A stretch of DNA of 64,000 bases, taken from sequence record KP869100, one strand, 5' to 3'. This DNA is from Escherichia typing phage 1. The position numbers were made by a program, and so were the translations under genes. How positions within the stretch are numbered: position 1 is the stretch's first letter; every line of letters begins with the position of its first letter. Below the pieces are notes generated by a model. The model had not been told where the DNA came from, made no database searches, and saw nothing but the letters and a program-made list of their open reading frames with translations. Below, piece after piece: positions 15,506 through 17,374 of this stretch.

Positions 15506-16921
15506 TTACCAGATATAACGGTCAATCATTACTGCTTTGAGCATTACACTGATTGGGTCAAACTTCTCACCACCAAGCAGAGCTTTTAAAGTGGCTGGAG
15601 AGAACCCTGATACCATTGCTACACCGTTATCCTTAACAGATACTTCGCAAGTACCATTACGGTTTGCTAAGTACCAGAATACCAGTTGTGGCATCTCATA
15701 TCCAGCTTTTTTGTACTTACTCTGAATTGCTTCAAAGTTTGTACGACCGTTAGCTCCATCAACCTGATTAAACTCCATATCGGAGAAGATGATAAGCTTA
15801 CTTGGCATATCTTTCTGAGTCAAGTTGTTTCTTTTACCTGTTTCAAGAATGCGGTCAAAAGCTGCTTGTAAGTTAGTTGAGCCATATTCAACGTGTCGCA
15901 TCACCTGACGATGACGGTTTCGTAAATCACCACTCAGTTCGATGAAGTGAGGGTTTGTTGAATAAACCATCAACTCATTCTTAAAGCAACCTGTATTGCG
16001 TTCTGCTACATACAAGGCAAGTGATACACCAATATCCAGAGCAGTAATGGAGCCAAAATTCACCCAAGACATTGAACTTGATACATCAGACATACACAAG
16101 ATGTTTTCACCTTCTGCCATCCAGTTTGGTAGTGCTTTCCACTGCTCATTAGCAACATCTGCATTACCATACTTGACAGATTTAATCACATCGTATGGGT
16201 AAACAGCACCAGCGTTAATCTTAGTCTCACCTTTTGATAAGGACTCGATGTAAGCTTTGTAACGCTCTCCATCTTTACGGTTAAACAGTTTTTGGTAACG
16301 TGCAGCAGCAAGTGAAGGAATCTTACTGTAGTCAATCTTACCAAACTCATTAGCAGAGATTTTTTGCTCAACTGTATCAGATAGTGCAGACAACAGTGTG
16401 CGGTACTCTTTCTCACTCAAGTTGGCAAACTTGCAGAAACGTTTTACAAACTGCTTATGACGTGGTTTGACTCGTGGTAACCACTTAGCCGCCAAACCTG
16501 CTGTTGCAGGGTCTAGTAATGCTGCTTCTAAATGTTTGAAGGCATCTGTCTCGAAACGAGTACCTACGAAGATTTTGAAGTCATCAAAACGACCAAGTTC
16601 TGCAATCTTATCCATAATGCGAAGAACCTGCGTAGACTCTAAAACTTTGTCTTCAATCGCTTGAAGTAAAACAGCTCTGAAGGCTTTACGCTCACCCATA
16701 CCTTCTCGTACATCTCGCATATGCAGTAAAATACGAACTGCAACATCAACATCCTCACGCAAAGCTTTGTAGAACAGGTCTGGTAAGATTTCTACATTGC
16801 TACGGCTTGAACCAGCAGCTTTGTAAAAGTCTACAAGAGCAGACATTGATGAAGTATGGTTTACAGCACCATTTTCAGTTCGACCTGCATGAAGGTGCGC
16901 ATGTTTAAATAACTCGCTCAT
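15506..16921 (-). CDS. vWA-domain protein (DUF2828-like; possible TROVE/Ro60-like N-terminal region)
   Basis: 471-aa ORF with MIDAS-type DxSxS motif (CMSDVSSSMS); lies directly upstream of the tRNA array in the same orientation. Confidence 0.55.
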   Translation of the reverse strand: MSELFKHAHLHAGRTENGAVNHTSSMSALVDFYKAAGSSRSNVEILPDLFYKALREDVDVAVRILLHMRDVREGMGERKAFRAVLLQAIEDKVLESTQVLRIMDKIAELGRFDDFKIFVGTRFETDAFKHLEAALLDPATAGLAAKWLPRVKPRHKQFVKRFCKFANLSEKEYRTLLSALSDTVEQKISANEFGKIDYSKIPSLAAARYQKLFNRKDGERYKAYIESLSKGETKINAGAVYPYDVIKSVKYGNADVANEQWKALPNWMAEGENILCMSDVSSSMSWVNFGSITALDIGVSLALYVAERNTGCFKNELMVYSTNPHFIELSGDLRNRHRQVMRHVEYGSTNLQAAFDRILETGKRNNLTQKDMPSKLIIFSDMEFNQVDGANGRTNFEAIQSKYKKAGYEMPQLVFWYLANRNGTCEVSVKDNGVAMVSGFSPATLKALLGGEKFDPISVMLKAVMIDRYIW

Positions 16922-17002
16922 ATTTTACTCTCTTCTCTCATTTGTTGTTTGATGTGACAGACTTTAGAGCAACTTTATAGAGTCTGTCAACATCTTTTAA
17001 AA

Positions 17003-17374
17003 TTATTTTTTAAGGGTTGCAACAGCAGAGAACGTTGGTTTGTTATCTGTCTGAGACTGACCACCGTTATCAGGAGTCTTCTTAGTGTCTGCTGCAATTG
17101 CTTTCATCTCACCTGCTGAGTGGGTCATGATAGTTTTACCGACTTCAATCATGCTCTTGATGGTTACATCGTCTGTGTTTAACCCGAACTCTGCAAGCTT
17201 AGCAGCGTCCCTTGTAACAATCGCCTCAAACAACTTTGCAGCAAACTCAGCAGAATTATCAATGGTCAGTTGAGCTTTTACAAGTGAGCTTTTGTTACGA
17301 GAGCCTTTTGGTCTTCCAGATGGGTTTCCAGACTGGCCTTTTTTAAACTGGCCTTTGTTTGTTCTGTTTTTCAT
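17003..17374 (-). CDS. small basic protein with GNPSGRPKG motif (DUF5681-like)
   Basis: 123-aa ORF, N-terminal KKGQSGNPSGRPKGSRNK motif. Confidence 0.5.
   Translation of the reverse strand: MKNRTNKGQFKKGQSGNPSGRPKGSRNKSSLVKAQLTIDNSAEFAAKLFEAIVTRDAAKLAEFGLNTDDVTIKSMIEVGKTIMTHSAGEMKAIAADTKKTPDNGGQSQTDNKPTFSAVATLKK

Follow-up and report, generated by a model that had tools for sequence, protein, structure and literature searches.

A DUF2828 protein of predicted Ro60 architecture and the CAGCAA-box RNAs adjoining its gene: a candidate Ro60/Y-RNA-type particle in phage tRNA arrays

The window analyzed here, a stretch of 64,000 nucleotides (nt) from Escherichia typing phage 1 (sequence record KP869100), comes from a Felix O1-like myovirus (Ounavirinae) and carries on its minus strand a gene for a 471-amino-acid (aa) protein of the DUF2828 family, followed by an array of tRNA genes. 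The interpretation favored here, with moderate confidence, is that phage tRNA arrays of this kind encode a divergent Ro60/Y-RNA-type particle, the most likely ligands of the protein being small RNAs that adjoin its gene and share a CAGCAA box. Direct support comes from the fold of the protein in a predicted structure, from the RNA family and its closing helix, from a three-way genomic linkage and from a permuted tRNA module in one of the RNAs. We infer from these, as we do for every function proposed downstream, that the protein binds RNAs of the type found in the window (e1 to e4) and that the RNAs are stable. The small RNAs are the most informative feature of the locus and were not part of the initial annotation, which had seen a vWA-domain protein at the head of a tRNA operon and proposed an RNA chaperone or quality-control role for phage tRNAs. 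The RNA family is what is new here, the Ro-like nature of the protein being already annotated. The family, its permuted-tRNA form in such a setting and its resemblance to the Class I RNAs of Dictyostelium are apparently undescribed, as neither Rfam 15 nor the searchable literature was found to contain them. The principal features are as follows.

15506–16921, minus strand: gene of the Ro60-like protein (DUF2828 and DUF7788), 471 aa, equivalent to wV8 gp47 and Felix O1 p079
15099–15167, minus strand: element e1, short form, AGACCAA-UUA-CAGCAA...UUGGUCU-GG, between tRNA-Glu and tRNA-Met
14945–15000, minus strand: element e2, short form, AGACCGU-AUU-CAGCAA...ACGGUCU-GG, between tRNA-Met and tRNA-Asn
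14543–14612, minus strand: element e3, short form, AGACCAA-AUA-CAGCAA...UUGGUCU-GG
14399–14525, minus strand: element e4, long form, AGACCGU-UUA-CAGCAA...ACGGUCU-GG, with a tRNA-like module in its interior
14421–14494, minus strand: circularly permuted tRNA-like module inside e4, called as a tRNA by ARAGORN when un-permuted

CAGCAA-Box RNAs and Their Closing Helix

The four elements occupy gaps of the tRNA array at 14399–15167 (minus strand), within the first kilobase of the array and 0.3–1.1 kb downstream of the 471-aa gene on the same strand. They contain four exact copies of AGAAGACC-N5-CAGCAA (14510–15170, minus strand), each then followed by GGUCUGG, and all of them form the same closing helix, with a variable interior inside it. 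Covariance model R1, which was built from 36 short copies that match it by construction, was run over the whole window, and its matches were e1 (39.5 bits, E=5.8e-7), e2 (42.5 bits, E=8.5e-8) and e3 (40.4 bits, E=3.2e-7) only.

The consensus of the family reads 5'-A-G-N5 / N-U-W / CAGCAA / 25–160 variable nt / N5'-C-U / G-3'. A helix of 7 bp, in which the outer A-U and G-C pairs are invariant, joins the 5' and 3' ends; the NUW-CAGCAA box lies on the 5' side of this helix in no conserved pairing, and a C-U-G tail completes the 3' end. The same design is built with other helices in a divergent relative, L007 (e.g., AGAGCAC-AUU-CAGCAA...GUGCUCU). The family was examined in a divergent locus set of 75 IMG/VR loci with 38–47% protein identity; loci are labeled by L numbers throughout. 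A strict descriptor found 68 instances on the gene strand as against 2 on the opposite strand and 0.2 in shuffles, with at least one instance in 44 of the 75 loci. In helix alignment set A3, 98.4% of cells were paired and five of the seven pairs changed on both sides, the G-C pair being invariant. Covariation on A3 is partly circular owing to the selection of the set for pairing, and non-circular tests of the helix were therefore added. An exact 7-nt complement was present within 185 nt for 65 of the 92 5' halves on the gene strand, as against 0.97% with mismatched partners; the opposite strand held six 5' halves. The whole of IMG/VR was also scanned with the pattern AGGAT-N3-TW-CAGCAA-N25-55-ATCCTG, which leaves two stem positions free. 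Among the matches listed, these positions were complementary in 140 of 149 instances (chance ∼14%), compared with 0 of 7 in the scrambled-box control, and the real box yielded at least 120 stretches as against 7 for the scrambled box.

These patterns bear on the proposal that tRNA arrays are colonized by the elements as selfish repeats, whether miniature mobile elements or targets of homing endonucleases. Such an origin would suit their multi-copy nature and the HNH endonuclease genes interspersed in the arrays, but it is very improbable in view of their strict strand specificity relative to transcription, an invariant box of 6–9 nt combined with freely co-varying helices across phyla, and a conserved position by one particular gene; terminal inverted repeats or target duplications were not noted.

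Linkage of the Elements to the Gene and to tRNA Arrays

A loose descriptor applied to the 75 loci gave 68 matches within 500 nt of the gene compared with 7 on the opposite strand, the peak being at the gene. Model R1 returned 95 matches at E≤1, all except one on the gene strand (94). The best R1 matches abut the gene on the same strand in six remote lineages with 27–37% protein identity, i.e., Campylobacter CP81, Listeria LP-083-2, a Staphylococcus phage, Enterococcus ZJGS3, Bacillus FADO and mycobacteriophage BigCheese, and the Staphylococcus phage carries three tandem stand-alone copies after the gene. Eighty bacterial contigs or contigs of metagenome-assembled genomes, which played no part in building R1, gave 49 matches in 35 loci; 48 of these were on the gene strand, and about three quarters lay within 500 nt. 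When loci were selected by the motif, the gene was present within the sequence covered in 30 of 120 among the matches listed, in all 30 cases on the motif strand and at a median distance of 368 nt. For motif loci with at least 3 kb of sequence on each side, again among the matches listed, it was present in 15 of 39 (control, 0 of 7).

The tRNA genes are distributed differently. All 258 tRNAs of the 75 loci, plus the tmRNA genes, lie on the strand of the gene, a tRNA occurs within 1 kb of the gene in 18 loci, and tRNA density is flat over ±10 kb around it. Immediate adjacency to tRNAs is therefore not itself enriched; as a specific signal, and as the meaningful position that the initial annotation took it for, it was downgraded to a regional association. 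The gene is a resident of tRNA-rich regions, with no particular tie to their head. In the Campylobacter and Enterococcus phages, tRNA arrays lie a short distance upstream of it. In Listeria phage LP-083-2 (L087), the gene stands between an array of 12 tRNAs and downstream genes for an HD phosphohydrolase, RtcB and an RNA ligase. Many loci (e.g., L008, L013, L018, L022 and L023) have no tRNA within 10 kb, and an element adjoins the gene. The gene, the CAGCAA-box RNAs and the tRNA arrays form a three-way association that is not universal.

It could be argued that the protein is Ro60-like and RNA binding and that its true substrates are misfolded or damaged tRNAs, rRNA precursors or host RNAs, the proximity of the elements reflecting a shared "RNA island." Ro60 does bind many misfolded RNAs via its central cavity (PMC12135203), and the same regions bring together genes for tRNA, tmRNA, ROOL and RNA repair. 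This explanation was given a low probability: element density peaks sharply at the gene (the 68 matches within 500 nt) while tRNA density is flat, and the linkage persists without tRNAs, across four phyla and in bacterial contigs.

Two further observations concern these regions. In L087, the RNA island with RtcB and RNA ligase also contains a match to ROOL RNA (RF03087; 87.4 bits, slightly short of the gathering score of 99.1) at 3429–3980 (plus strand), flanked by the tRNA array and the DUF2828 gene. In several lineages, tmRNA genes lie within 10 kb of the DUF2828 gene on its strand, and in one marine lineage genes for ClpP and DnaJ stand between the two.

tmRNA-bearing loci, strand of the gene: L020, 8605–9054; L090, 1247–1597; also L021, L024, L026, L032, L040 and L056

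Protein Family and Predicted Fold

The initial annotation had noted a vWA protein with the MIDAS (metal ion-dependent adhesion site) motif DVSSSMS and had pointed to DUF2828, and both statements were borne out. The motif occupies residues 279–285, and all five MIDAS positions are intact. Pfam DUF7788 matches residues 274–455 (E=1.7e-43, 148.9 bits; curated cut-off 27.1) and Pfam DUF2828 also scores above its cut-off (E=3.8e-29, 102.2 bits; curated cut-off 29). Among 56 homologs, down to 40% identity, the MIDAS positions D279, S281, S283, T349 and D381 are invariant, as are many basic residues of the helical half, including R40, R69, R72, R78, R111 and K146. The protein is matched end to end by PHROG 850, which is named "RNA-binding protein" (phrog_850, E=5.8e-184), and the Pfam "Ro60 vWA domain" (vWA_Ro60, PF25045) gave a weak match in 13 of the 56 members, the best with E=1.7e-4. 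According to the predicted structure, the 471-aa protein has the Ro60 architecture, namely, a ring of α-helical (HEAT-like) repeats that a vWA domain with an intact MIDAS closes. Searches of PDB sequences with phmmer and with a profile retrieved neither Ro60 nor any other solved structure for it.

Scoring of 8000 candidates gave 2511 family matches, with a uniform DUF2828 plus DUF7788 architecture. Members are found in 708 phage records of GenBank, whose hosts span four phyla. Thousands of metagenomic proteins and numerous bacterial contigs add to these, and Pfam records the family in eukaryotes as well. The gene is named in GenBank as hypothetical, "vWFA protein," "RNA-binding protein" or "DUF2828," and the mycobacteriophage members are labeled "Ro-like RNA binding protein" by SEA-PHAGES; as a label derived from homology, the Ro60 idea is therefore not new. 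In the searched literature, no paper was found that studies the DUF2828 family, the papers mentioning it being on plants and a tardigrade genome. A defense or anti-defense label was rejected, as PADLOC gave only a non-significant match to JetD (E=0.038) and NCBIfam gave none.

The invariant MIDAS site could also be read as that of a vWA/MIDAS adaptor for protein–protein contacts, such as an assembly co-chaperone or a trap for host factors, with no role in RNA and a resemblance to Ro60 that is only architectural. vWA domains usually mediate protein contacts, and the family has no sequence match to TROVE; even so, we hold such an adaptor to be improbable.

A Permuted tRNA in the Long Form and Its Relation to YrlA

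The module enclosed by e4 contains the parts of a tRNA in circularly permuted order, i.e., an anticodon-like arm, a 4-nt V loop, a T arm (GAAGGUUCGAUUCCUUC) and a 7-bp acceptor stem closed by the loop AGAU, after which come U8 and a D arm with A14, G18G19 and A21. ARAGORN identified a 74-nt cloverleaf tRNA in the un-permuted construct and made no call on the native order, and the Rfam tRNA model matched e4 partially (22 bits). A scan for permuted modules gave 27 calls on gene strands and none on opposite strands or in shuffles. Nine of the 27 were discarded as artefacts of tandem tRNA genes, and CAGCAA frames enclose 14 of the remaining 18; these come from Felix-like, metagenomic, mycobacterial, Enterococcus and Bacillus phage loci.

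The same order of stem-loops, V, T, closed acceptor and D, has been published for bacterial YrlA RNAs, whose genes lie on the strand of Ro60 and no more than 4 kb from it (PMC4201824). Rfam YrlA (RF02553) matched three copies in Enterococcus phage L090 over their full length, with 47.8 (E=1.5e-7), 35.8 and 28.4 bits, all below the gathering threshold of 69 bits; the match spans the core of T arm, acceptor stem and D arm, and the outer Rsr-binding stem is not aligned. Element e4 of the window gave no YrlA match at E≤10. On testing for the YrlA motif GNCGAA(N0-1)G, e4 was found to have GGCGAAGG, only as part of the T stem, and the elements are therefore not canonical YrlA. A canonical Y RNA by the gene was likewise rejected, since Rfam (gathering thresholds and E≤5) gave no Y_RNA or YrlA match in the window.

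Directly 3' of e4 lie 147 nt (14249–14395, minus strand) whose predicted fold is closed by a ∼20-bp stem, with a minimum free energy of −43 kcal/mol as against −26.4 kcal/mol in shuffles (z=−4.8) and no Rfam match. This segment may be another structured RNA.

Weighing the Evidence: Partner RNAs or Processing Signals

A number of observations weigh against a Ro60/Y-RNA-type particle. On the side of the protein, Pfam TROVE (PF05731) has no match at E≤1 in any of the 56 members; the TROVE/Ro60 link drawn in the initial annotation holds for the fold in the predicted structure and not at the level of sequence. The searched literature is without binding, expression or RNA-end data for any DUF2828 member. 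The SUSP1 ortholog of the gene, agp131, was scored "Not Fit" (−0.56, p=0.64) in a knockdown screen in a laboratory host (PMC11879866 supplement), meaning that its knockdown brought no loss of fitness, a result that fits a conditional accessory role and is positive evidence for no function. On the side of the RNA, the Ro60-binding motif GNCGAA / GGUCCGA is absent from the frame, which has CAGCAA there instead. As regards linkage, ∼60% of motif-selected loci among the matches listed have no gene within at least 3 kb, one marine lineage has its elements 6–9 kb from the gene, beside tRNA-Met, and 11 of the 75 loci have no element even by the loose descriptor. Because most motif loci show no gene in the sequence covered and the marine elements lie so far from it, the elements are at least as much a feature of tRNA arrays as neighbors of the gene. 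In L078 (12520–12615, plus strand), moreover, a CAGCAA frame, AGGCUUC-UUA-CAGCAA...GAAGCCU, encloses an ordinary tRNA (Rfam 55.2 bits, 12538–12608) and fits a processing signal as well as a partner RNA.

The alternative to which these arrays speak is that polycistronic tRNA transcripts are punctuated in cis by the CAGCAA-box stem-loops, which would not be stable trans-acting RNAs. The stem-loops would then be processing, folding or stability signals for host or phage RNases, and the Ro60-like protein would be a pre-tRNA chaperone or quality-control factor with the elements as its landing pads, which sharpens the role first proposed for it. The elements of the window do lie between tRNAs, the frame in L078 encloses a canonical tRNA, and 108 of the 120 motif loci (among the matches listed) are dense tRNA arrays, with 1588 tRNAs between them, on the motif strand without exception and at a density of 1.46 per kb. 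Punctuation of this kind nevertheless appears rather unlikely, given the many loci with an element by the gene and no tRNA within 10 kb, the tandem stand-alone copies in the Staphylococcus phage, the large array of T5 that is without the element, and an architecture that matches YrlA and the stable, abundant RNAs of Dictyostelium.

Resemblance to Dictyostelium Class I RNAs

The sole Rfam match on the short forms is RF01414, the Dictyostelium Class I RNAs, which aligned end to end with 19.7 bits for e1, 24.0 for e2, 25.4 for L018 and 23.1 for L087. As these scores are below the gathering score of 41.5 bits, the phage RNAs are not Class I members by the criterion of Rfam; judged by their design, they are the closest thing known. 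In Class I RNAs, a 6-bp helix with compensatory changes joins the ends, and an invariant 5' G pairs with the C of the 3' CUGU (Kjellin et al., 2021; PMC7919456). An 11-nt motif by the helix, in which U3, C6, C9, A10 and A11 are nearly invariant (CCUUACAGCAA), is followed by a variable interior, and the class was reported to be unique to Dictyostelia (PMC7919456). The phage box NN-U-W-W-CAGCAA agrees with this 11-nt motif, several copies being exactly CC-UUA-CAGCAA, and the phage helices likewise keep structure and not sequence, with the 5' G paired to the 3' C. For example, the Class I sequence GUUGAC-CUUA-CAGCAA...GUCAAC-UG (PMC7919456) may be compared with (A)GGUUCC-UUA-CAGCAA...GGAACC-UG of phage L013.

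The outgroup table of the same study also contains a candidate from Capsaspora owczarzaki, GGAACUC-CUUACAGCAA...GAGUUC (PMC7919456 supplement), with a perfect 11-nt box and a long interior; it was not accepted as a Class I RNA by the authors (PMC7919456).

We put forward tentatively, as a possibility that is less probable than the particle itself, that the phage CAGCAA-box RNAs and the dictyostelid Class I RNAs are one family and the cognate ligand of DUF2828 Ro60-like proteins. If so, Class I RNAs would be functional analogues of Y RNAs, bound by a putative DUF2828 protein of the amoebae, and phages, possibly its evolutionary source or sink, would have the same particle in their tRNA arrays. 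A 20-year-old orphan RNA class would gain a protein partner and a mechanism, and a second, widespread branch of Ro60/Y-RNA biology would emerge.

Genomic Context in the Window

The region 15300–17500 shows 99.6% identity to Escherichia phage wV8, and 250 other records also match it. The features surrounding the gene are listed below.

17003–17374, minus strand: DUF5681 gene, 123 aa, basic N-terminus, Pfam DUF5681 E=2.1e-14
16961–16990, minus strand: sigma70-like site TTGACA-18-TAAAGT, upstream of the 471-aa gene and after the DUF5681 gene; consensus match only
15495–15464, minus strand: 12-bp hairpin between the 471-aa gene and tRNA-Pro
15487–15459 and 15396–15367, minus strand: two sigma70-like sites between the 471-aa gene and tRNA-Pro; consensus matches only
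10198–15340, strand of the gene (minus): tRNA array, 26 genes by ARAGORN

Rfam also found 25 of the 26 tRNA genes. The first member of the array, tRNA-Pro, ends 165 nt downstream of the stop codon of the 471-aa gene on the same strand, in agreement with a position at the head of the tRNA operon as initially proposed. The sigma70-like sites flanking the gene suggest, however, that the array may have promoters of its own, which qualifies the notion of an operon.

The DUF5681-like basic protein noted upstream was confirmed. As a neighbor it is limited to Felix O1-like (Ounavirinae) loci and one relative, L007, and a conserved partnership was rejected for this reason; owing to the same restriction, the DUF5681 gene is probably a lineage-specific upstream neighbor outside the Ro60-like system, and the context seen in it by the initial annotation applies to the Felix O1-like lineage alone. 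Its SUSP1 ortholog, agp130, was scored "Fit" (2.43, p=0.008) in the genome-wide knockdown screen (PMC11879866 supplement), and the small basic DUF5681 protein therefore matters for infection.

Within the array, the gaps 13473–13547 and 13769–14073 (both minus strand) gave weak tRNA-Sec-like (23 bits) and tmRNA-like matches, and wV8 has a "tRNA-OTHER" pseudogene annotated at the site matching the former. In this part of its array wV8 also contains an HNH endonuclease gene, which the window is without. Elsewhere in the window, an open reading frame upstream of the endolysin (19000–19881, plus strand) encodes two near-identical immunoglobulin-like repeats (PxITQQPTNQxxNEGxTLTLxVxATxATGYQWKK...).

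Proposed Mechanism and Implications

In the favored particle, the protein would grip the conserved module of stem, box and tail as Ro60 grips the conserved stem of Y RNAs, and the variable interior would give specificity or recruit other factors. In short-form RNAs this interior would consist of a short hairpin region, in long-form RNAs of a permuted tRNA whose acceptor stem is closed; by analogy, the two forms would parallel YrlB and YrlA. The RNAs are probably excised from the same transcripts as the tRNAs. The particle may act on structured RNA during infection by modulating its decay, quality control or repair. One candidate activity, by analogy, is to scaffold, tether or inhibit a host exoribonuclease such as PNPase; tethering or inhibition of PNPase was shown for Rsr and for the Ro60 of phage phiLo (PMC12135203). 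Another candidate activity is the handling of damaged or misfolded tRNA together with RNA-repair enzymes of the RtcB type. The role would be an accessory one, of consequence in certain hosts or conditions only.

Ro60/Y-RNA particles are a conserved and poorly understood RNA surveillance device of animals, ∼5% of bacteria and a few phages. The DUF2828 phage family, which has so far had only a homology-derived label, is far more widespread, and a conserved, recognizable RNA by the gene makes the system directly testable. Phage tRNA arrays currently attract attention as a means of countering host defenses that target tRNA, and a function-linked explanation is offered here for the mysterious non-tRNA RNAs within them. 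The resemblance also opens an unexpected way into the study of Dictyostelium Class I RNAs, a class previously regarded as restricted to social amoebae.

Comparison With Known Systems

The closest parallel in bacteria is Ro60 (Rsr) with its YrlA and YrlB RNAs, as in Salmonella rsr-yrlBA-rtcBA and in the Deinococcus Rsr-Yrn1-PNPase complex ("RYPER"). Both systems have a protein with a ring and a vWA/MIDAS domain, which for the phage protein is predicted, and both have candidate partner RNAs within a few kb on the same strand, often in multiple copies. In both, one RNA type contains a module of T arm, closed acceptor and D arm, and a second, shorter type is without it. RtcB-type RNA repair genes lie nearby in some phage lineages (Listeria LP-083-2), as in the Salmonella operon. 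Unlike bacterial Ro60, the phage DUF2828 proteins have no TROVE sequence signature; the phage frame consists of a 7-bp helix and a CAGCAA box in contrast to the GNCGAA/GGUCCGA bulged helix of YrlA; and the phage elements, unlike bacterial Y RNAs, sit inside tRNA arrays.

Among phages, the Ro60 of Thermus phage phiLo binds the adjacent Y-like RNAs Yrl1 and Yrl2 and host PNPase (PMC12135203; PDB 9kop, 9l5y). The phiLo protein differs from that of the window in being annotated as TROVE and shares 14–17% sequence identity with it, and the phiLo RNAs carry a CGAA motif. Small non-tRNA RNAs, some of them tRNA-like, are present between the tRNA genes of T5 (RNAI, RNAIII and the tRNA-like RNA1/2/3) as they are in the window, and species 1 and 2 RNAs of T4 are small RNAs of the same kind as those of T5. 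In contrast to the window, the whole tRNA region of T5 (L092), as tested, is without a CAGCAA-box element and without a DUF2828 gene. The RNAs annotated there at 10285–13950 (minus strand) are stable RNAs of unknown function, none of which matches the CAGCAA-box model.

Class I RNAs of Dictyostelium differ from the phage RNAs in several respects. The phage RNAs have a spacer to the 5' G that is shorter by 1 nt, as well as an additional outer A-U pair. Class I RNAs are transcribed by a eukaryotic polymerase from a DUSE promoter ∼60 nt upstream, whereas the phage and bacterial loci have sigma70-type contexts. The sole verified binder of Class I RNAs is the RRM protein Rnp1A. Both kinds of RNA share a (C)UUACAGCAA box that adjoins the helix and has identical invariant positions, a variable interior rich in A/U and a 3' C-U-G tail; both are ∼45–70 nt long and present in many copies per genome.

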